Source: an uncultured Verrucomicrobiota bacterium
GTDB taxonomy: Bacteria > Verrucomicrobiota > Verrucomicrobiia > CAZIPW01
Assembly: GCA_964541675.1 (NCBI GenBank)
Contig: CAZIPW010000001.1
Span: forward strand, 1,447-65,446
Length of the DNA stretch: 64,000 bases
Direction of reading: 5' to 3'
In this document: positions 5,834-32,199 of the stretch, one piece after another
Layout: every line of letters begins with the position of its first letter
Numbering within the stretch: position 1 is the stretch's first letter
Translations under genes and position numbers: made by a program
Notes under the pieces: model-generated
Database searches by the model: none
What the model saw: the letters and a program-made list of their open reading frames with translations, nothing else
What the model was told of the DNA's origin: nothing

Positions 5834-6334
5834 ATGTCGTACAATGTCATCATCCGGGGGTCGGCTGGCGTGGGAAAGACCAGCATTGCCAAAAGACTGG
5901 CTGGACTCATAAGCGGCTATCATATTTCTTTCGATGAGATTATGCGCCTGCACAAGCTTGACAGGGTTTCGCCGGAAGATGGCTGTATCCCACTTGATAA
6001 TTTTATCCGTGGCAACGAGTTTGCGCTTGGCAGTGTGTCCGGACTCAATGCTTTCTCAATTCCCGTGATCTTTGACGGATGTTTCTACCACAAAGAGCAG
6101 CTGGATCATCTCTTAAAGAGACTGGACGGGACGATCTATGTATTTTCCCTGGTTGCGCCCGTGGAAGAGTGCGTGGCACGCGATAGTGGGCGTTCGGATC
6201 CGATTGGCGAGGAGTCAGTCCGGGCGGTTCACAGCCTGACCTCCGCTTTTGAGGTCGGCAGGGTGATCAATACCCTTCAAAAAACGGTCGACTCGGTTGT
6301 ACACGAGATGCTGGGGCTAATTGGAAAACGATAA
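5834..6334 (+). CDS. Small P-loop NTPase / nucleotide-kinase-like (AAA_33-type) protein
   Basis: Walker A GSAGVGKT, VIFDG, CVARDSGR. Confidence 0.75.
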   Translation: MSYNVIIRGSAGVGKTSIAKRLAGLISGYHISFDEIMRLHKLDRVSPEDGCIPLDNFIRGNEFALGSVSGLNAFSIPVIFDGCFYHKEQLDHLLKRLDGTIYVFSLVAPVEECVARDSGRSDPIGEESVRAVHSLTSAFEVGRVINTLQKTVDSVVHEMLGLIGKR

Positions 6335-7129
6335 CAGTTTCTGCCAGAGCTCCGTATGTATCTCCTCCGCCCGCGCGGTTGGCTTGATTTTGCCGGAAGC
6401 GACAAGCTCCTGGAACCATCCGGCGCTCCGCGGGTCGGCTTCGGCGGCCTTCCTGAGCTGTTTGCGGCGATTGAGAAACAAGCTCCGTACCAGCCGTTGG
6501 ACTTCCGGAGGGAAGATGACGGGATTTTCCCTGAGGGTGTAGTGGACAATGACGGAGTCCACGGCGGGTGGCGGGAAGAAGCATTTTCGTCCCACATAGT
6601 GAGCGATGCCTCCCTCATAGGCCGACTGTAGGAAGATCGAGATGGCGGAGAAAGCCTTGCCTGAGCTGGCCGAATAACGCTCGGCAAGCTCGCGCTGGAC
6701 CATAAGTGTCATGGAACGGGGAAGTCCCCAAAGGAATCTCTCCAACAGTGGGGTGGCGACAGAGTAGGGGAGATTGGCGACAATCTTATAGTCGCGCCCG
6801 AAAGCTGCATAATCGACCTGGGTGGCGTCTTCACTGATGATCTTGAACTGCCCTGATTTGAGGTTTCCTGCGAAGGTGTCCTCCAGATACGGCAGCAGAT
6901 GCGTATCGCGCTCAATGGATGTCAACTTTGCCCCGGTGGCCAGGAGAGCAGAGGTGAGAGTCCCCAGCCCCGGGCCGATCTCGACAACGTTTTCGCCGGG
7001 CTTGAGCTGCGCGATCGCGACCGACTTCTCGACGATATTCTTATCCACGAGAAAGTTCTGCCCGAACGATTTGTTGGGATTGTGCCCGAGCTTTTTGAGC
7101 GTGTCGAGGGTCTCTTTTAATGTTAGCAT
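6317..7129 (-). CDS. rsmA: 16S rRNA adenine dimethyltransferase
   Basis: KSFGQNFL, VVEIGPGLG, VANLPY, FFPPPAVDS. Confidence 0.95.
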   Translation of the reverse strand: MLTLKETLDTLKKLGHNPNKSFGQNFLVDKNIVEKSVAIAQLKPGENVVEIGPGLGTLTSALLATGAKLTSIERDTHLLPYLEDTFAGNLKSGQFKIISEDATQVDYAAFGRDYKIVANLPYSVATPLLERFLWGLPRSMTLMVQRELAERYSASSGKAFSAISIFLQSAYEGGIAHYVGRKCFFPPPAVDSVIVHYTLRENPVIFPPEVQRLVRSLFLNRRKQLRKAAEADPRSAGWFQELVASGKIKPTARAEEIHTELWQKLLSFSN

Positions 7130-7135
7130 TGCCTT

Positions 7136-8257
7136 GTGCGCTTTGAGCTTACCAAAACCGACGACAAAACCCAAGCCCGCGCTGGAGTGATGACTCTTCC
7201 CCACGGGGAAGTCAAAACCCCTGTCTTTATGCCGGTGGGAACCCAGGGGACGGTCAAGGGGTGCCTGCCGGACGCGCTTGAGAAGATGGACGTACAGATT
7301 TTATTGGGGAATACCTATCATCTGCTTCTGCGTCCGGGGACCGAGCGGCTCGAGAATCTTGGGGGCCTCCATAAATTCATGGGCTGGAATCGTCCGATTC
7401 TTACCGATAGTGGCGGCTTTCAGGTCTTTTCACTGGCCAAGCTCGTCAAAATTGACAGAGATGGGGTCAATTTTCAAAGCCATCTGGATGGTCATCAGAT
7501 GCGGCTGACTCCGGAAAGCGTAATGCTGGCGCAGCGCCAGATCGGAAGCGATATTGGCATGGTGCTGGATGTCTGCCCTCCGGGGAAAGCGGAAGAACCC
7601 GAGGTTGCCGAGGCTGTGAGAACAACCATTGAGTGGGCGCGGACGGCTCGAATGGTTAAAGAAAGACCGGCGAATGTCTTTGGTATTGTGCAAGGCGGGC
7701 GGTTTCCCCATCTACGTGAGAAGTGCGCAGGGGAACTCATAAAGCTGGACTTTGACGGCTACGCGATAGGGGGAGTGGCGGTGGGAGAGCCCGAGGAGGA
7801 TATCCTCGCGCAGACGCGCCTGACAGCTCCACTGCTTCCTGCCGATAAACCCCGTTACGCGATGGGAATTGGAGAACCAACTCAGCTCTTGGAGATGATC
7901 TCGCATGGAGTTGATATGTTTGACTGCGTCATTCCCACCCGCGAGGCCAGACACGGGATAGCCTATACGAATTTGGGCAGGCTCAACTTGAAAAACGAAA
8001 AATACAAGGAGGATCTCTCGCCGCTTGATCCCAACGTGATTTCTCCCGCCAGCTCTTTCTCCCGCGCTTATATTCGCCACTTAATCGTGAGCGATGAGCT
8101 TTTGGGGCTGATACTGCTGAGCTATCACAACATCGCCTTCTTTATGGGACTGATGAAGAAAGCGCGTGCAGCGATTATTGACGGAACTTTCTCAGAGTGG
8201 AAGAATGCTTGGATAAAAGGCTTTTGCGCTAGGCCACCTGAGGCACAAAGCACTTAA
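7136..8257 (+). CDS. tgt: tRNA-guanine transglycosylase
   Basis: TPVFMPVGT, TDSGGFQVFSL, GIVQGG, DMFDCVIPTR; C-terminal Zn-binding Cys residues not obvious. Confidence 0.97.
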   Translation: MRFELTKTDDKTQARAGVMTLPHGEVKTPVFMPVGTQGTVKGCLPDALEKMDVQILLGNTYHLLLRPGTERLENLGGLHKFMGWNRPILTDSGGFQVFSLAKLVKIDRDGVNFQSHLDGHQMRLTPESVMLAQRQIGSDIGMVLDVCPPGKAEEPEVAEAVRTTIEWARTARMVKERPANVFGIVQGGRFPHLREKCAGELIKLDFDGYAIGGVAVGEPEEDILAQTRLTAPLLPADKPRYAMGIGEPTQLLEMISHGVDMFDCVIPTREARHGIAYTNLGRLNLKNEKYKEDLSPLDPNVISPASSFSRAYIRHLIVSDELLGLILLSYHNIAFFMGLMKKARAAIIDGTFSEWKNAWIKGFCARPPEAQST

Positions 8258-24674: not shown

Positions 24675-27386
24675 ATGCCCGAGATTGCAAAAAACTATGA
24701 CTTTGCGACGCTGGAGCCATATTGGTATAACGAGTGGCTTCAAAAAGATGCGTTCAAACCCGTCGTCGGAAAGAAGCTGAATTTCCTTGAGCGCCTCATG
24801 GGCAAAAAAGAGGAGACCTATACCATAGTCATTCCTCCTCCCAATGTGACGGGAGTCCTGCACATGGGACACTTTCTGAACAATACCCTGCAGGACGTCC
24901 TGATTCGCCGCGCGCGTCTTGAAGGCAAAGCTGCCCTCTGGATTCCGGGGACCGATCACGCGGGGCTGGCCACGCAGGTCCAGGTGGAGCGCTCCCTGCG
25001 AAAAGAGGGCAAGACTAAGCACAATATGCCCCGTGAGGAGTTCATGCAGAGGATCCTTCAATGGTGCGAGCTAAATGGCGGTACGATCTTAAAGCAGCTC
25101 AAGCGCATGGGTTGCAGTTGCGATTGGAGCCGTACGGGTTACACGATGGATCCCGCCTACCATCGGGCGGTGCTGCACGCCTTCGTGAAGCTTTACGAGA
25201 AGGGCTATATTTATCGCGACTACCGCATGGTGAACTGGTGTCCAGTAAGCCTCACGGGACTGAGCGATGAGGAAGTCATCATGAAGGAGGAAGAGGGAAT
25301 CATGGTCCATATGAAGTACGAGCTGGTGGAGCATCCCGGCGAATTCATTGAGATAGAAACCACCCGTCCCGAGACAATCATGGGTGATACTGCCGTGGCA
25401 GTGCATCCCAAACATCCCAAGTACGCCAGATACATCGGCAAACACGTCTGGAGGCCGTTTCCAAAAGCACAGATCCCCGTGATAGGGGACGAGGCTATTG
25501 ACTTGAATTTTGGAACTGGTGTCCTAAAAGTGACCCCAGCACATGACAAGGTGGATTTTGATATGGGTAAACGTCACCAGCTACCCGTGATAAATGTTTT
25601 TAATCCGGATGCGTCTTTGAATGAAAATGCCGGTGAGAGATATAAAGGCATGACGCGTGAGAAGGCCCGCGAAGAGTCAATCAAACAACTCAAAGAAATT
25701 GGGCTCCTCATAGCCGTGAAGCCGTACAAGCACTCCGTGGGTTACTCCGAACGCGCGGGGGTGCCGATCGAGCCGCGCTTAAGCGTGCAGTGGTGGCTCA
25801 AATATCCTCATGTGGAAGAGGCCAAACAGGTGGTGCGCGGGGGTCTGATCAAATTTCATCCGGCCCGCTGGGAGAAAGTCTATTTCAACTGGCTCAATAA
25901 CATCCAGGACTGGTGTATCTCGCGCCAGGTGATCTGGGGCCAGCGGATTCCCGTGTGGTACAGGAAGGGCACAGACCGTGAGGATCCGAGGAACCGTCAC
26001 TGCAGCATCGATGGTCCCGCTGACAGGGAGAACTGGGAGCAGGATCCCGACGTGCTCGATACCTGGGCTTCCTCGTGGTTGTGGCCGCTGGCTACAATGG
26101 GCTGGCCTGATGAGGCTGCCATGAAAAAGGCCCAGCTGGACAGTTTTTATCCGACGTCGACCCTTGTCACAGGCCCCGATATCATCTTCTTCTGGGTTGC
26201 CCGAATGATTGTGGCGGGACTGGAATTCCGCAGCGGCGCTCTCAATGACAGGATTCCCTTCAAAGACGTGTACTTTACCAGCATGGTCCGCGACGCTGAA
26301 GGCCGCAAAATGAGCAAGAGTCTGGGCAACGGCGTGGATCCGCTGGCGCTCTTTGAACAGTACGGTGCCGACGGTTCGCGCTTCGGTATTGTCCGCAATG
26401 CCCCCACTGGTCAGGACATCGCCTTCAGCGAGGAAATGGTCGAGTTGGGACGAAACTTTTGTACCAAGTTATGGAACGCCTCGCGCTTCCGCCAGATGCA
26501 GGGAATCCGGGAGGCTCCGGCTAGCCTGGATGAACTGCTCTGCGGTATCTCTCCCGAAAAGCTCGACGCCTACGACCATTGGATACTCGCGCGGCTTGTT
26601 GAGACGACGCGTCTCGTGGAGAAATGCTTCGCGGGGTTCGATTTTGCCGCGATGGGCAACGGGCTGTACGCTTTCTTCTGGGGGGATTTCTGCGACTGGT
26701 ATGTGGAAGCCTCAAAAGCGCGTCTCAAGGATGAGACCCAGAAAGCCCATATCATCGCGATTCAGGACGTCGTTCTCCGTCAGACTCTGCAGCTATTGCA
26801 TCCGATTATTCCGCACATCACGGAGGAGCTGTGGAAGCAGATGTCTTTTGCGCCGGAGGGCAAGCTGATACAGCAGTCCCCCATCGTGGGTGCCGCAGAT
26901 CTGCAAAAGAGGCTCGTCGCGCGCGGTTTGAACTTCAAAGAATCCGCTTTTGTGAGCCAACTCGCGGAGCTGGTTGAGGCTGGACGTGCGCTCAAGGCCG
27001 ATGCTGGAATGAGCGCCAAGCGCGACGTGGATTTTGTCCTCAAAACCGAGTCCGCCGCATCCGTTGAGCCGCAGCTGGAGGTACTATGCCGCTTCTTGGG
27101 CGCCAAAAAAATCATCCTGACCACCCAAGACAAGGCCAACGCTCCAGCGCGCGTGACGCCACTTGGCACGATCTATCTGGATTTGACAAGCGCCGTTACC
27201 GCCGAGGACAAGGCCAAGTTAAAAAAGCAGTTGGAGGAGATTCAGAAAGCGATTGCGTCCGCGAAGGCCAAACTGGAGAACCCGGCTTTTACCGGCAAGG
27301 CTCCGGTAAGCGTTATTGACGGCGTGAGGGCTACAATGGAGACCAATGTCAAAAAAATGGCTGAGCTTGAGAGGCTGATCGGGTAG
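24675..27386 (+). CDS. valS: Valine--tRNA ligase
   Basis: PPPNVTGVLHMGH, DWCISRQ, DVLDTWASS, KMSKS, C-terminal coiled coil with F..KAP. Confidence 0.98.
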   Translation: MPEIAKNYDFATLEPYWYNEWLQKDAFKPVVGKKLNFLERLMGKKEETYTIVIPPPNVTGVLHMGHFLNNTLQDVLIRRARLEGKAALWIPGTDHAGLATQVQVERSLRKEGKTKHNMPREEFMQRILQWCELNGGTILKQLKRMGCSCDWSRTGYTMDPAYHRAVLHAFVKLYEKGYIYRDYRMVNWCPVSLTGLSDEEVIMKEEEGIMVHMKYELVEHPGEFIEIETTRPETIMGDTAVAVHPKHPKYARYIGKHVWRPFPKAQIPVIGDEAIDLNFGTGVLKVTPAHDKVDFDMGKRHQLPVINVFNPDASLNENAGERYKGMTREKAREESIKQLKEIGLLIAVKPYKHSVGYSERAGVPIEPRLSVQWWLKYPHVEEAKQVVRGGLIKFHPARWEKVYFNWLNNIQDWCISRQVIWGQRIPVWYRKGTDREDPRNRHCSIDGPADRENWEQDPDVLDTWASSWLWPLATMGWPDEAAMKKAQLDSFYPTSTLVTGPDIIFFWVARMIVAGLEFRSGALNDRIPFKDVYFTSMVRDAEGRKMSKSLGNGVDPLALFEQYGADGSRFGIVRNAPTGQDIAFSEEMVELGRNFCTKLWNASRFRQMQGIREAPASLDELLCGISPEKLDAYDHWILARLVETTRLVEKCFAGFDFAAMGNGLYAFFWGDFCDWYVEASKARLKDETQKAHIIAIQDVVLRQTLQLLHPIIPHITEELWKQMSFAPEGKLIQQSPIVGAADLQKRLVARGLNFKESAFVSQLAELVEAGRALKADAGMSAKRDVDFVLKTESAASVEPQLEVLCRFLGAKKIILTTQDKANAPARVTPLGTIYLDLTSAVTAEDKAKLKKQLEEIQKAIASAKAKLENPAFTGKAPVSVIDGVRATMETNVKKMAELERLIG

Positions 27387-27529
27387 GGAATGTATTGTTT
27401 CTTGCGGATGCCGAATTCCGTTCCAGTTTTCGTTTTTCCTCTTTTCAATTGCTCACTTTCAAACAATGGTTATACTTGTATATGTAGAATATATCTTTTT
27501 ACTCTATATGTTATCCAGGTCATCCCCGT

Positions 27530-28240
27530 ATGAAATATTCTCTGATTCTAGTTGGTTCTCATGATGGCAGTAAGACAGAATCCTTTGTAAAAGAAAGGGC
27601 CTGTCGTGGGAATGTTCTACTTGTTGAACCTGTTCCTTGGTTATTTGAAAAACTAAAAACAAGATATGCTGAAATAAAATCGATAGATCTGCTGAACGTT
27701 GCAATTACCGAGGAAGATGGTGAATTTACGTTTTATAGTCCGACCGATTCGGCCAATACCATTCAAGACTACGGTGACCAGCTGGGTTCTTTGAATCCGA
27801 ACCATGCCAAACTTCATGATGAAAGATTTTCGGACAAGATTGAAGCCATAAAGGTTCGTGGAATATGTTTTGAGACGCTTATAAAAACATTTGATATCGA
27901 TGCCGTTGAAATGCTCATGACTGACACGGAAGGTTATGACACGAGGATATTGTCAAAGTTTCCTTTCTTATACTTAAAGCCGGAAAAGATATTGTTCGAA
28001 CATAAACATAGCGATGGAGTTTACAATGTAGGGAGAAATCTATCTCAACTATTGGTTATACTTGAGACATTTGGGTATAAGATGACGATTATAGATGCCG
28101 AGAATACCATGGCTGTTCTGGAAAAAAGGCATCCGCTATCGAGGGGTGTGTGCGCGGTGGATTTACAGCCAAAGCGTCAGGGAATTGATCCGAAGAGGCT
28201 TCACTACTTTGACGATGTGATGGCGTGTAGTGTCCGATAG
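27530..28240 (+). CDS. FkbM-family methyltransferase (AT-rich, probably acquired)
   Basis: VGSHDG, VEPVP, NVAI, DTEGYD..IL, KPEKILFEH; visibly more AT-rich than valS. Confidence 0.85.
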   Translation: MKYSLILVGSHDGSKTESFVKERACRGNVLLVEPVPWLFEKLKTRYAEIKSIDLLNVAITEEDGEFTFYSPTDSANTIQDYGDQLGSLNPNHAKLHDERFSDKIEAIKVRGICFETLIKTFDIDAVEMLMTDTEGYDTRILSKFPFLYLKPEKILFEHKHSDGVYNVGRNLSQLLVILETFGYKMTIIDAENTMAVLEKRHPLSRGVCAVDLQPKRQGIDPKRLHYFDDVMACSVR

Positions 28241-28306
28241 GGCGTAAAGGCAGATATGGATGACAATGTCAAAAAAGTGGCCGAGCTGGAGCGGCTGATA
28301 GGGCAG
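28241..28306 (+). pseudogene. Diverged remnant of the valS 3' end
   Basis: GVKADMDDNVKKVAELERLIG vs valS GVRATMETNVKKMAELERLIG; 57/74 nt identical for 28241-28314 vs 27321-27394. Confidence 0.85.
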
Positions 28307-28338
28307 GGGGTGTATAATATAATATATTTATTAGTCAA

Positions 28339-28375
28339 TAATATTTACCGCCTTTAAAAAAGGAGCTACTGCAAC
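28339..28375 (+). CRISPR. Single CRISPR-like repeat, copy A (no tandem array)
   Basis: TAATATTTACCGCCTTTAAAAAAGGAGCTACTGCAAC, 37 bp, preceded by AT-rich sequence with TATAAT boxes; the inverted copy lies next to cas2. Confidence 0.65.
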
Positions 28376-28411
28376 CAAGTCTGGAGCCGTTGCATTTTGA
28401 CTAAAGTTCTG

Positions 28412-28624
28412 TCACTTGAAGCCGATATTGAAATGGCCGTGCGCCTGGAGCCGACTAATTGATGCTGTATGACGCTTTTGGACTATAATCTGCGGAAGGG
28501 GCCCTCCGCCGCCGCAAGCGACAAAAGCCTCAGCTTGGTCACATCTCACAAGATATACACCCTTGTCAATAAGCTTGCCTTCCGAAACCATCAGTCCTAC
28601 TATTACCAGTTGAGTAACCCACAC
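28412..28624 (-). CDS. Hypothetical 70-aa ORF inside the bracketed fragment
   Basis: ORF only; no motif recognised. Confidence 0.3.
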   Translation of the reverse strand: MWVTQLVIVGLMVSEGKLIDKGVYLVRCDQAEAFVACGGGGPLPQIIVQKRHTASISRLQAHGHFNIGFK

Positions 28625-28628
28625 CGTT

Positions 28629-28952
28629 ATGACAAGCGCAAGTTCTAAACTTTACCGAGGGTACCGCCTAAGCTCTCGTGCGCTCGTCGTGTCAGTCAAC
28701 GGAGTTCCACTACAAACCCGTCCTGATCTGCGGCCCGGCACAATCGCCGACTTCTTCGAATGTGGATACGTGGGAGCCGGTCCGCAACTGCTCGCGCTGG
28801 CGATCCTCGCTGATTTCCTGCACAACGATCGTATAGCCATTGAAAAATCTACTGCCTTTGAAAGAAATGTGATTTCACACCTTCCTAAGGACCGCTCATG
28901 GGCTCTAACATCACGTGACGTAGCTGACGCGCTAGTCTTGCTTGGCTCTTAG
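28629..28952 (+). CDS. DUF6166-like protein (mobile-element associated)
   Basis: Y.G.R...V.V.G.PL..R.DL....F.CGY.GAGPQLLALAILAD...D..A......F...VI..LP....W.LT pattern. Confidence 0.75.
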   Translation: MTSASSKLYRGYRLSSRALVVSVNGVPLQTRPDLRPGTIADFFECGYVGAGPQLLALAILADFLHNDRIAIEKSTAFERNVISHLPKDRSWALTSRDVADALVLLGS

Positions 28953-29767
28953 CTCGGACGCGCTGTGATTGCCGCTAGCTCGCGGCGTCGGTTTTTTAGC
29001 ACGACAATTTTCGAATCATAGGGAGACCGCGAAAGTATATCCACACTCGACAATAACTCGTTCTCATTACCCAGAATAACCTGTAACATCGCCTGACGAT
29101 AGGTTAACTCTTCCATAAGCCGCTTTTGGACATTATCAGAAATGTCCAGCAATTTGGTATCACACAACCGAATCTCAGTCAGACCAGGAACTCGCTCGTG
29201 GTGGTGAATAGGCTTAAATGTTTGCAGAGCCAGAAGGCTCTCAGTCACAAGCTCTGAGGCCCTCTCTACTTCATCGCGTGGTGCCCTCGCAATCTCATCA
29301 GGAGTCGCCTGCTCCTGCGTCAATAACAGACTCCGTGTACAGTACTCACGGACAACTTTATCAACCTGTGCCTTCGCAAAATGCGCTTCGCAGTCCCAAA
29401 GGCATGTCCAAATACGAGGAAAAACCCCTGCCACTATTAAGACAACACAAGCGGCAACTATGACGGGCAGATCCCATCCGCAACCAAAATACGAGTGAAA
29501 ACATATGTAAGGGACAGCCACCACCGCAAGTGTGCCTACATACAAGGTCCTGGCGCGATCTCGGTGAGCGGCCTCGTTCGATTCACGCCATTTTTCTTCC
29601 AGAAAAGCGCCATTTGTATCGAGAATGTGCTCCACCATCTTTGCCCCTAACCATACCAACGTTATTACTAAGGCGCCACTCGTATGATTCTCGGCCGAGA
29701 TAATCCAGTCCGCTATAACCCCACTAAGAAAGCAAAGCGCGATAAAAGTGGGAAAGGCCACCAACAC
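28949..29767 (-). CDS. Hypothetical membrane protein, probably 5'-truncated
   Basis: About four hydrophobic segments then a helical soluble domain. The frame stays open upstream of the GTG across the repeat junction (..TYRIGWDVLVAF). Its stop overlaps the DUF6166 stop by 4 bp. Confidence 0.65.
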   Translation of the reverse strand: MLVAFPTFIALCFLSGVIADWIISAENHTSGALVITLVWLGAKMVEHILDTNGAFLEEKWRESNEAAHRDRARTLYVGTLAVVAVPYICFHSYFGCGWDLPVIVAACVVLIVAGVFPRIWTCLWDCEAHFAKAQVDKVVREYCTRSLLLTQEQATPDEIARAPRDEVERASELVTESLLALQTFKPIHHHERVPGLTEIRLCDTKLLDISDNVQKRLMEELTYRQAMLQVILGNENELLSSVDILSRSPYDSKIVVLKNRRRELAAITARPS

Positions 29768-29786
29768 GTCCCAGCCGATACGGTAA

Positions 29787-29823
29787 GTTGCAGTAGCTCC
29801 TTTTTTAAAGGCGGTAAATAATA
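29787..29823 (-). CRISPR. Single CRISPR-like repeat, copy B (inverted relative to A)
   Basis: Minus strand TATTATTTACCGCCTTTAAAAAAGGAGCTACTGCAAC, 36/37 identical to copy A, 29 bp downstream of the cas2 stop. Confidence 0.65.
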
Positions 29824-29852
29824 CTATATATTAAGACTCGTCATAACAACAA

Positions 29853-30164
29853 CTAAGATGCTTGGACTAATTCAAACGAGAGGGGTTGCTTGGTTAGTTT
29901 TTCAACCAATGGTGAGGGGAGTGTACTCTCTTCCACACAGGATTTACACAAATACACGCAAAAAAATCTGTCCGTCTTGCGCGTAAGCAGGCTTTTCAAT
30001 TTCGACTCAAATTTTGTTCTTTCTTTGGCGTATAACTTTCCGATGAATACGCGGTGGGATAACTGCATAAGCCCGTAGTCTCTGCACCATACTCTTGCCC
30101 TGTTGAGACACCTCCGGTTACGTGTCTCCCATCCAATCAGGACAAAGAAGGGGAAATTATTCAT
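29853..30164 (-). CDS. cas2: CRISPR-associated Cas2 (divergent)
   Basis: Overlaps the cas1 stop by 8 bp; 103 aa; VLIGWET...RARVWCRDYGLMQLSHRVFIGKL...DRFFCVYLCKSC matches the Cas2 layout (YD replaced by WE). Confidence 0.8.
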   Translation of the reverse strand: MNNFPFFVLIGWETRNRRCLNRARVWCRDYGLMQLSHRVFIGKLYAKERTKFESKLKSLLTRKTDRFFCVYLCKSCVEESTLPSPLVEKLTKQPLSFELVQAS

Positions 30165-31167
30165 GGGAGGAAAGCAAATCGACGACGTCAAAGGCTTTAT
30201 ACCGGGTTTCCCTACCAATAAAATAACGCGCCAAAAAACGAATTTGTTCTTCAATAATCCGTTTTAGAGAGCATCTCTTCTTCTTCCACTGAGCATTGGC
30301 ATTTAGATTCTTGAAGACAGCCTCGACGACAATGCCTTTGCCTGCCGCCGAAAGCTGATTTTGACCTTCTTTGTTTTGCTCAAAGAATTCCGATTTGACG
30401 CGTTTATCGGCAAAAATAGGAAACAGGGCGGCATCAACAATAGGCACGCGAAACTCTTCCACAAGGTCGCAGACAAGAGCAGGTTTGCCATACCGTTCGG
30501 TGTGGTACAGGCCAACGTACGGGTCAAGTCCCACATAAAGGCACGCGCGTTCGACTTCATTGTACAGTATCCCGTAACCGTAGTTAAGCATACTATTGTA
30601 TTTGTCATGTCCCTGTGGCGCTCGTCCGGGGAACCGGCACAATTTTTTCAGACAGCTGAAATATCGATCAGCGATATAGCCCTCCATGCCCAAGAGCTGT
30701 TCTTTGCCCTTATCGCTGACGGACAAAAAATCAATCGAATCAAAGATTGTCTGGGCTTGAAGCAGCTCCACGGAGAAATCCCTCTTGTATTGATAGCCCA
30801 GATAACGAATATAGCTGATTTGGTTCGCGCATTTGCCTTGGACCAACACTTTTGCGAGATCGAATGATTTCTCGTGGCTGTTCGAGATTTCCAATTGGGA
30901 CTTCCTAATACTGGCCAGTCCCTTCGGTTCGCTGGAAAAAAATCGCCCCATTGGTCTGCCAAAAGCGCCGAGATATACAATATCGACATCGTGGGCAAGA
31001 GCCAATTGAACTGCGTGCGTGGTCAGGGACGCCGGGCGTAGGATGACTATCTTGTCCAGTCGACGAATGGGATATTCCTTCTTCTCCTTTATATCGGGAA
31101 ACGAGAGGGCGATGCGTTCGCCCGTGGTGCCAATCTTAGTACCGTAAGTGTCTATAAGTAAGTCCAT
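30157..31167 (-). CDS. cas1: CRISPR-associated endonuclease Cas1
   Basis: QLLGMEG...YF, NSMLNYGYGILY, GLDPYVGLYH, LVCDLVEEFRVPIVD; catalytic E/H/E present. Confidence 0.96.
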   Translation of the reverse strand: MDLLIDTYGTKIGTTGERIALSFPDIKEKKEYPIRRLDKIVILRPASLTTHAVQLALAHDVDIVYLGAFGRPMGRFFSSEPKGLASIRKSQLEISNSHEKSFDLAKVLVQGKCANQISYIRYLGYQYKRDFSVELLQAQTIFDSIDFLSVSDKGKEQLLGMEGYIADRYFSCLKKLCRFPGRAPQGHDKYNSMLNYGYGILYNEVERACLYVGLDPYVGLYHTERYGKPALVCDLVEEFRVPIVDAALFPIFADKRVKSEFFEQNKEGQNQLSAAGKGIVVEAVFKNLNANAQWKKKRCSLKRIIEEQIRFLARYFIGRETRYKAFDVVDLLSSHE

Positions 31168-31315
31168 AAGTTTAATACGTGAGAACTATAAGGTAACATA
31201 TACCTAACAGTAAGTAAAGGACAAAAACTCGTTTGCAATGCACTGATACAAATTTTTCCAAGATCTCTTGCTCAGAACAAAGTGCGTTCACCGATCGAGC
31301 CCCCTCCCAAATTTC

Positions 31316-31480
31316 TGCTATAATACCGCCTGACTGAAAAATTGTTCTCTGACATTTTATTTCTCCACGACAAGCGCTGGAGAACCGTATCGGGGAAAGT
31401 ACGCCACGTCCCATCCAAGAATGTCCACGCCCCGATATAATTAAGCAATAAAGCACTAATCTTCACTGTAAAACAGTGAG
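31316..31480 (+). ncRNA. Putative small structured RNA divergent from cas1
   Basis: Extended -10 TG-C-TATAAT (31316-31324), 8-bp stem TATCGGGG/CCCCGATA (31388-95/31430-37), terminal hairpin TCACTG-TAAAA-CAGTGA (31463-79). No expression evidence. Confidence 0.3.
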
Positions 31481-31512
31481 ATAGCAGTGATGATAAGGCA
31501 ATATCGGTATCC

Positions 31513-32085
31513 TTATGAAATGATCTTATTGTCTGCCCTATTTTTCCACTCCGGGAACCACAGCTTGATCTCTTCCTCCGCCTCCGCGGCATTTCCGGAT
31601 GAGTGCACCAGATTGTACAGCCCCCGATACTCCATGTTCGCCGATACCGCCGTCTCGATGCAGTAGTCCCCGCGGATCGTGCCCGGTGCAGCCTCGGCTG
31701 GAACCGTCGGCCCCGTGATGCGCCGGACATTCTTGATGGCAGACGTCCCGCTCCAAATCATGGCAACCACGGGCCCCATCATGATATAATCGACAAGCCA
31801 CTGGCGGATCTTCGCCCCCATCTTCTCGGGCTCCTCGCTGCCAAAGACCTTCATGATTTCACCCTGTTTTCCGACTTCGGTAAAATTGCGGACTGCTATG
31901 TTGCCGATGCGGCTCATCAGCTCCGGGGTGGCTGGGTAATGTTTCTCAACCAGTTCCCTGGTGGCGCTCATCATCTTCATAGCCTCCAATTTCAGACCGA
32001 TTCTCTCAAGCCGGGAAACGATTTCTCCGACCAGCGCGCGTTTAACCCCATCGGGCTTTACCATCACAAAGCTTCTCTCTGCCAT
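31513..32085 (-). CDS. ndk: Nucleoside diphosphate kinase with a long internal insertion
   Basis: ERSFVMVKPDGV, GPVVAMIW, PGTIRGD, NLVHSS (phospho-His). Confidence 0.93.
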   Translation of the reverse strand: MAERSFVMVKPDGVKRALVGEIVSRLERIGLKLEAMKMMSATRELVEKHYPATPELMSRIGNIAVRNFTEVGKQGEIMKVFGSEEPEKMGAKIRQWLVDYIMMGPVVAMIWSGTSAIKNVRRITGPTVPAEAAPGTIRGDYCIETAVSANMEYRGLYNLVHSSGNAAEAEEEIKLWFPEWKNRADNKIIS

Positions 32086-32199
32086 AAATGGATCAAACAT
32101 ACCAATCAGGCCATATACTGTCAAGTTAGGCTTGAAGAGGAGAGGGTTCTGTCTCAAGCTAGAAGCGGAGCTTATCCCTCAAAGCTTCCGTTTACACGT

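Follow-up and report, generated by a model that had tools for sequence, protein, structure and literature searches.

CRISPR (clustered and regularly interspaced short palindromic repeat) arrays are defined by direct repeats of ~24 to 40 nucleotides (nt) and spacers of ~25 to 45 nt, and CRISPR integrases are thought to measure their substrate, so setting spacer length. A complete CRISPR-Cas system also has an effector module (Cas3/Cascade, Cas10/RAMP, Cas9, Cas12, or Cas13). Casposons are recognized by a cas1 gene enclosed by terminal inverted repeats together with a target duplication and, usually, a family B polymerase, and integrons by the integrase IntI and complete cassettes bounded by attC sites. 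Intramolecular transposition by cut-and-paste or replicative elements, such as IS10/Tn10 and Mu, produces inversions flanked by inverted target duplications. Stand-alone CRISPR adaptation modules have also been published already (PMC5704561). Here, we describe a locus that shares features with each of these systems, found in a 64,000-nt stretch of DNA from an uncultured Verrucomicrobiota bacterium (assembly GCA_964541675.1, contig CAZIPW010000001.1, positions 1,447 to 65,446; hereafter, the window). In this locus, 1411 bp of DNA (28376 to 29786; the insert) lie between two inverted copies of a CRISPR-type repeat, next to cas1 and a divergent cas2. The analysis covered the insert, its flanking repeats, the cas1-cas2 pair, and the surrounding housekeeping genes, in a host genome of 1.84 Mb that is 94% complete.

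We assign a probability of roughly 60% to the reading that the 1411-bp segment is a kilobase "spacer," that is, a single contiguous stretch of foreign DNA with arbitrary ends, located at the repeat of a horizontally acquired cas1-cas2 module that has no effector and lies between valS and ndk. This module is a member of a clade centered on Patescibacteria in which a 37-nt repeat is regularly duplicated around 0.14 to 4.2 kb of DNA and not around ~35 bp. The arrangement resembles CRISPR adaptation but falls outside the array definition in the length of the spacer and, here, in the orientation of the repeats, of which there are two inverted copies 1411 nt apart.

The genes and repeats follow one another in the order valS, FkbM methyltransferase gene, valS relic, repeat arm, insert, repeat arm, cas2-like gene, cas1, and ndk. 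The two arms (28328 to 28375 and 29787 to 29834) are 48 nt long and 88% complementary, with a perfect 32-nt core that occurs twice in the window (0 copies expected from shuffled sequences) and twice in the whole genome. When the copies are compared in a 37-nt register, 36 of 37 positions are identical, and the similarity falls off beyond it, so that the duplicated unit is repeat-sized; 37 nt is also the repeat length of the Cas1 clade. The cas-proximal repeat (29787 to 29823, minus strand) begins 29 nt past the cas2 stop, compared with a gap of 8 to 22 nt in relatives. The distal copy (28339 to 28375, plus strand; core at 28344 to 28375) is inverted with respect to it, and both copies point their TGCAAC end at the insert. 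The 3' half of the cas-proximal repeat matches the clade consensus at 14 of 19 positions, including an A-run, GGA, and TGCAAC, and its 5' half is unrelated. The clade nhmmer model did not detect the window repeat, although its position after cas2 and its length fit. A search of viral contigs for the 3'-half pattern returned no match.

The right end of the insert falls inside a gene. A minus-strand open reading frame (ORF; 28949 to 29767) encodes a 272-residue membrane protein from a GTG start, with no ATG before it, and the frame remains open across both the junction (29786/29787) and the repeat, as far as a stop at 29831 to 29833 in the AT-rich flank. Homologues were collected with an exhaustive HMMER search of 1.84 billion representatives, which gave 21 non-self matches. 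Fourteen of these, 297 to 322 residues long, were aligned; the seven left out were one 177-residue fragment, three long multi-stretch proteins, and three matches with E values of 3e-4 or more. All 14 aligned homologues extend N-terminally past position 29786 by ~30 residues, which form an initial hydrophobic helix in which an F..G motif is conserved, and the window is homologous to them from Y16 of the stop-to-stop frame onward, the first residue that the insert encodes. Judged from these alignments, the gene (28949 to 29785) lacks the first ~90 nt of its coding sequence, the cut coinciding exactly with the border of the repeat. The family profile matches the window at model positions 27 to 302 of 304, and the C terminus is complete. 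Word-indexed protein searches with both insert proteins returned only the window's own sequences; a search of the ESM Atlas with a full-length homologue was uninformative (best score, 0.79), and a cluster look-up gave no names.

The other gene of the insert encodes a DUF6166 protein (28629 to 28952, plus strand; Pfam PF19663, E value of 3e-17, profile positions 1 to 91 of 93) and is complete; its end overlaps the end of the membrane-protein ORF by 4 bp in convergent orientation. It is preceded by 253 nt of non-coding insert DNA, in which no ORF crosses the left junction, so the left end of the insert lies in non-coding DNA. The same convergent pair was found on an unrelated metagenome contig, L093, the one locus returned by a search with a two-row membrane-protein alignment. 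There, the membrane protein (L093:3900-4895) is 43% identical and the DUF6166 protein 60% identical to those of the window, the two genes overlap by 26 bp, and the pair adjoins a histidine kinase and a response regulator, with no mobility gene. Because the pair is kept in L093, the two genes are natural neighbors, and the insert is therefore one contiguous donor piece. The pair is also foreign to its host on the evidence of a profile search, since none of 400 other genomes from the host phylum contained the membrane-protein family. At the DNA level, the insert has no second copy in the genome and no match in 40 relatives, and none was found among phages and plasmids. One further run, X4, contained three 151-nt pieces (two or three of them independent; depth, 2), all inside the insert and without differences; they are a faint hint of a donor existing apart from this host and were not used as evidence.

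These results bear on a previous sequence-only reading of this DNA, several of whose statements held up. It had described the 272-residue ORF as lacking an ATG, with a frame running through the junction into the AT-rich flank, and had concluded that the gene was cut mid-sequence, which the N-terminal extension of all 14 homologues bears out; it had also taken the 4-bp overlap as a sign of real neighboring genes, and L093 agrees. Its description of the insert as more balanced in guanine-cytosine (GC) content than its AT-rich flanks was likewise correct (0.47 to 0.55 for the insert, 0.36 to 0.44 on the FkbM side, and 0.42 to 0.50 on the cas side). The statement that DUF6166 proteins occur mostly in phages or integrative and conjugative elements, in contrast, did not survive: tblastn returned 0 phage records and 42 plasmid records, of which 41 are typed as non-mobilizable, with haloarchaeal genera dominating the names listed, and there was no match to PHROG. 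The best plasmid match had no membrane-protein partner in its context. With no phage records and mostly non-mobilizable plasmids, the proposed mobile-element donor is not established, and neither the L093 locus, with no mobility gene, nor the insert, with no phage or plasmid DNA match, lends it support.

The neighboring pair consists of a genuine cas1 gene and a divergent cas2 gene, which by sequence and structural modeling constitute an intact adaptation module. Cas1 (30157 to 31167, minus strand; 336 residues) is the sole Cas1 of the genome and matches Pfam Cas_Cas1 with an E value of 5e-65 and TIGR00287 with 235 bits (cut-off, 71.7). Residues E162, H222, D234, and E237 are invariant in all 50 aligned clade sequences, and we take them to be the active site by analogy with the residues of E. 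coli Cas1. In profile comparisons, CRISPR Cas1 (4n06; E value of 1e-48) was a better match than the casposase (6opm; E value of 9e-36). The cas2 gene (29853 to 30164, minus strand; 103 residues from a conserved MNN start) is weak by sequence, reaching 21.3 bits with Pfam CRISPR_Cas2 (E value of 3e-4), under the cut-off of 23.8 bits. A profile search of the PDB nevertheless gave Cas2 proteins as all of the top five matches (E values of 0.03 to 0.3). The AlphaFold model (predicted local distance difference test score, 77) has the order beta-alpha-beta-beta-alpha-beta, and its best Foldseek matches were Cas2 structures (2ivy with an E value of 4e-5, followed by 7f84 and 3oq2), which confirmed the Cas2 fold at the level of the predicted model. 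Residues C57, C103, and C106 are invariant in the Cas2 alignment, giving the clade pattern C..CxxC. Neither cas1 nor cas2 nor either insert ORF contains a frameshift.

Beyond this pair, the genome showed no Cas3, RAMP, or Cas9 family match over cut-off, the Cas12 and Cas13 families not having been searched; the cas3_core profile hit only generic helicases, below cut-off, and the RAMP and Cas9 profiles hit nothing. A k-mer scan found no periodic CRISPR array in the genome. The best Cas1 match within the host phylum is only 34% identical. Relatives at 53 to 81% identity are present in a large protein collection, and those with names are mostly Patescibacteria.

The genomic context of these relatives was examined by scanning contigs from one genome per species. 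With a single Cas1 protein as the query, no relative was found; relatives emerged only when a Cas1 alignment was used, which gave 65 loci, 32 at 51 to 75% Cas1 identity and 33 at 40% or less. In 29 of the 32 closer loci, a 37-nt repeat follows cas2 by 8 to 22 nt (nhmmer E value of <1e-3); the other three comprise two weak partial repeat matches and one contig that ends inside the repeat. At least two repeat copies are present in 14 of the 32 loci. All 56 repeat copies of the relatives lie on the cas strand, that is, they are direct, and the 27 intervening segments measure 144 to 4242 nt (median, 1340 nt, compared with 1411 nt in the window), none being 60 nt or shorter. Among the 33 distant loci, at least 11 carry ordinary arrays with periods of ~65 to 80 nt, and in one of these, L060, the repeat ends are similar. 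Annotating 149 ORFs of 10 clade loci with Pfam revealed housekeeping flanks and no effector genes. The window shares with this clade a Cas1 that falls within it (54 to 81% identical to its members), a divergent Cas2 with the C..CxxC pattern, the absence of a nearby effector, and the size of the insert, and it differs in its non-Patescibacteria host, half-matching repeat, and inverted distal copy.

Inserts of the relatives also contain genes cut at the repeat. In L031, a Pkinase domain begins at profile position 156; in L039, FAD_binding_3 covers positions 1 to 220 of 349 and a TrwB fragment starts at position 214; and in L054, a Cas1 fragment from profile position 106 lies together with cas2 between two repeats. 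Whole genes are frequent as well, among them those for an isochorismatase, a short-chain dehydrogenase, a glyoxalase, and a PemK toxin. The possibility that the repeats were simply inserted into native genes was ruled out, because what lies to one side of a repeat is unrelated in sequence to what lies to the other. We also rejected the idea that the AAAGGA..GTG end of the repeat drives translation of the inserts: of 17 long open frames leaving the repeat, from 50 repeat copies, 4 are in the GTG frame, against ~5.7 expected by chance. L044 contains an inverted half-repeat motif; it falls within coding sequence and has the look of a chance match. Insert and flank GC contents in the relatives were not discriminating.

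Several of these loci stand out in further ways. A 1504-bp unit, extending from ~70 nt upstream of cas1 through cas1-cas2 to the last base of the first repeat, is present with 99.8% identity at three sites of one metagenome-assembled genome (MAG; loci L033, L034, and L047) and with 97 to 99% identity in two other MAGs (L042 and L035), at positions 5899 to 7402 of each of the five loci. The unit is sharply bounded and has unrelated flanks, which makes the cas module itself multicopy or mobile. The stretch between two repeats in L054 (5966 to 7120) holds cas1 from about codon 95 and cas2, is 100% identical to the full copy, and looks like an insert; in L058 (6001 to 7507), cas1 ends after residue 134, with a repeat ~1 kb further on. 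The cas modules thus appear to rearrange or to capture parts of themselves. In an Adlerbacteria MAG (L045, 4758 to 12441), cas1-cas2, two repeats, and a 4.2-kb insert lie within an operon for ribosomal proteins, flanked by the genes for L14 and S8. Two inserts of one array (L050, 7455 to 7566 and 8338 to 8449) share a 113-nt stretch with 93% identity in opposite orientations.

Collectively, the anatomy of the locus, the truncation, the foreign origin, the clade-wide pattern, and the intact Cas1 and Cas2 are direct observations. A gene-cut, 1.4-kb foreign piece between CRISPR-type repeats, beside a Cas1-Cas2 pair without other CRISPR genes, suggests that this integrase can store gene-sized DNA in place of short snippets. 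In the mechanism we propose, Cas1-Cas2 would join the 3'-OH ends of a DNA to the two borders of the repeat without measuring its length, and gap filling would then duplicate the repeat, much as a target site of 37 bp would be duplicated. When a free fragment is integrated in the ordinary way, only direct copies result, so the inverted distal copy of the window needs another route.

Our preferred account of that copy, which we put forward tentatively as possible but hardly probable, is an intramolecular Cas1-Cas2 reaction. A break in the chromosome would have fallen within an earlier, longer insert, ~1.4 kb downstream of the repeat. The two 3'-OH ends that it left would then have attacked the leader-side border of the repeat on one strand and its insert-side border on the other, in a crossed sense. 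The segment consisting of repeat and insert would thereby invert, and two gap fillings would leave a new leader-side repeat; the uncrossed sense would instead yield a deletion and a circle. If R is the repeat, D the insert DNA that is inverted along with it, E what lies beyond the break, and rc the reverse complement, the predicted product is leader-R-rc(D)-rc(R)-E, in which the inverted copies are each exactly as long as one repeat, the TGCAAC ends both point to the insert, and the outer flanks keep their orientation. This prediction matches the arrangement in the window. In its widest form, the idea is that the Cas1-Cas2 of this clade acts as a length-blind integrase that pastes not only free kilobase fragments but, in a transposase-like way, also the two ends of a nearby break into the repeat, inverting or deleting adjacent DNA, and that the window carries a natural footprint of such an inversion, with inverted repeat copies around an insert that ends on one side at a break within a gene; this wider proposal we hold to be rather doubtful.

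Several observations weigh against reading the insert as a kilobase spacer. The window is an exception in its clade, with inverted copies where all 56 repeat copies of the relatives are direct, and the intramolecular reaction invoked for this is one that we infer. The 5' part that the membrane-protein gene has lost does not lie beyond the distal repeat, so that the intramolecular model needs further DNA to have disappeared at the break. The locus has a single insert, and the searches turned up no donor. The window repeat has only its 3' half in common with the clade consensus and does not form the clade hairpin (fold z-score of -0.4, compared with -2 to -3 in relatives), and a 5-bp direct repeat, TAATA, lies outside both 32-nt cores, as in a transposon target duplication. 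Finally, open frames of at least 100 codons are present on 42% of 77 junction sides in the relatives, compared with 66% of 1040 random flank positions, which fits many cuts inside genes but is intermediate and not decisive. The idea of a spacer-like capture, raised already in the sequence-only reading, is thus upheld in part: the contiguous foreign piece, its arbitrary ends, and its position as a spacer agree with it, and the geometry, with inverted copies against 56 of 56 direct ones, does not.

Other explanations were weighed as well. The locus could be the relic of an ordinary or direct kilobase array that illegitimate recombination or deletion, independent of Cas1, had scrambled, the module perhaps being inert in this host and the insert perhaps having arrived with it. 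The half-divergent repeat that does not fold like that of the clade, the single insert, and the foreign composition of the island are compatible with such decay, and a separate insertion with a valS 3'-end relic nearby hints that the spot is prone to recombination. However, no frameshift interrupts cas1, cas2, or either insert ORF, the orientation of the flanks is kept, and a duplicated unit of exactly repeat size, identical at 36 of 37 positions, would be a rare outcome of random rearrangement; we regard this explanation as unlikely. Somewhat harder to sustain is the view of a small non-autonomous transposon that inserted beside cas2, possibly mobilized by Cas1 in casposon-like fashion, with the 32-bp arms as its terminal inverted repeats and the 5-bp TAATA as its target duplication. 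Its attraction lies in the perfection of the inverted repeat over 32 nt, in the TAATA directly outside both cores, and in the multicopy cas1-cas2-repeat unit seen elsewhere (1504 bp, 99.8% identity, three sites of one genome). Yet the genome contains only two copies of the arm, the insert has no transposase and its gene is cut by the arm, and cas1 lies outside the arms, unlike in casposons. The cas-proximal arm, moreover, stands at the site of the repeat in 29 of the 32 relatives and has the clade's 3' half, and TAATA is nearly palindromic and fits equally well as positions 1 to 5 of the 37-nt repeat, where it is 4/5 complementary. A transposon is accordingly quite an unlikely origin in our judgment.

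Two further explanations are less probable again. The repeats might be the sites of a site-specific recombinase, with inserts kept for their function as in integron cassettes; whole genes are common in the inserts of relatives, and the DUF6166 gene of the window is intact with its own upstream region. Against this stand the lack of a tyrosine or serine recombinase beside the arrays of the 10 annotated loci or in the window, the many inserts that start or end within genes or domains, and the frames leaving the repeat, which are not enriched for the terminal-GTG frame (4 of 17), and we consider cassettes of this kind very improbable. The inverted layout might also be an assembly artefact, a mis-join at the 32-nt repeat. 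Unitigs from three wetland runs, two of them possibly the source of the genome, break at the repeat, as do Logan contigs, so that the orientation of the insert between the arms and the presence of an empty-site or flipped allele cannot be read from them. The same unitigs nonetheless support both junctions between flank and repeat: in all three runs, the valS-side unitig enters the inverted copy by 28 to 32 nt, the cas-side unitig enters the proximal copy, and the insert is a separate 1471-nt unitig bounded by the repeat. The shared 34-nt node has a depth of 16.8 and 25.8 against ~10, about double, and with each unitig used once, only the assembled path or the same path with the insert flipped can be drawn. 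A mis-join is extremely unlikely on these data. The kilobase spacer is the explanation we prefer.

The island that holds the insert is bordered by housekeeping genes, its annotated neighbors being ndk, ptsI, and valS. On the left, valS encodes valyl-tRNA synthetase (24675 to 27386, plus strand; Pfam tRNA-synt_1 with an E value of 3e-117, Anticodon_1, and Val_tRNA-synt_C); on the right, ndk (31513 to 32157, minus strand) matches Pfam NDK with an E value of 1e-38. GC content is 0.55 to 0.60 in the housekeeping flanks and 0.36 to 0.50 across the whole island. The last 75 nt of valS are doubled (27321 to 27395 and 28241 to 28315, plus strand; a direct repeat of 77% identity), and the two copies bracket a low-GC segment of 0.9 kb (GC content, 0.36 to 0.42) that contains the FkbM-family methyltransferase gene (27530 to 28240, plus strand; Pfam Methyltransf_21 with an E value of 7e-11, NCBIfam fkbM_fam). 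The relic copy, 23 nt away from the distal repeat, still codes for a ValS-like C-terminal peptide, and the FkbM segment looks like an insertion into the valS 3' end that carried its own replacement end.

The sequence-only reading had also considered inward transcription from leaders on both sides, which would yield double-stranded or antisense RNA against the donor element; a pair of inward-reading leaders found no support. One promoter-like site was seen on the left (28295 to 28323, plus strand; 10 of 12 consensus positions, TATAAT), within the valS relic and AT-rich flank and reading toward the distal repeat and the DUF6166 gene, and none reads in from the right; the scan gave four promoter and two terminator sites, compared with 2.5 and 2.2 in shuffled sequences, which is no excess. 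A search of positions 27000 to 32000 against Rfam at an E value of 1 or less returned no match. Elsewhere in the host genome, contigs C14 to C16, C26, and C27 contain many dispersed 28-mers that recur; they have a repetitive extragenic palindromic (REP)-like or palindromic intergenic look and are unrelated to the cas repeat. Among the weak Cas1 matches, two Bathyarchaeia contigs, L082 (1 to 30 and 4952 to 4981) and L086 (616 to 648 and 8240 to 8272), carry 30- to 33-nt inverted repeats 5 to 7.6 kb apart around the Cas1 region, and these units may be casposons.

If the kilobase-spacer reading is correct, gene-sized writing at a fixed site would change the picture of integrases that measure their substrate. 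It would represent a gene-acquisition route for bacteria with small genomes, here operating in an unrelated recipient host, and would offer a candidate tool for the site-specific insertion of long DNA. The inverted layout, if made by the enzyme, would tie CRISPR adaptation to intramolecular transposition and bears on the proposed transposon origin of Cas1. A literature search that lay largely outside subscription journals returned no account of kilobase spacers with Cas1-Cas2 or of intramolecular Cas1-Cas2 reactions.

Set against the systems described at the outset, the locus is closest in its parts to canonical CRISPR adaptation. It has a true Cas1 and Cas2 and a 37-nt repeat of CRISPR length right after cas2, duplicated around foreign DNA, and the more distant relatives of its Cas1 carry ordinary arrays. 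It departs from canonical adaptation in the size of what is inserted, 1411 bp here and 144 to 4242 bp in the clade compared with ~30 to 40 bp, in that no effector, Cas4, or Cas6 was found here, in having almost no leader, and in its inverted second copy.

With casposons it shares a Cas1-family integrase and kilobase DNA, inverted repeats, a short flanking direct repeat, and, in one relative genome, a multicopy unit. In contrast to casposons, cas1 here is outside the inverted repeats, there is no polymerase B among the annotated neighbors, this Cas1 is closer to CRISPR Cas1, and the relatives have direct and not terminal inverted repeats. The likeness to integrons is one of layout, an integrase gene adjoining an array of gene-sized inserts that are parted by a short, structured repeat. 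The enzyme belongs to another family, however, with no tyrosine recombinase or other recombinase among the annotated ORFs; cuts fall inside genes, one of them in the insert of the window, and there is no sign of selection for expression driven by the repeat. The proposed inversion, finally, would have its counterpart in IS10/Tn10 and Mu, where two 3'-OH ends of one molecule attack a staggered target, with either an inversion or a deletion circle as the outcome. In the present case, a 37-nt CRISPR-type repeat would be the target that is duplicated, and the proposed enzyme is Cas1-Cas2.

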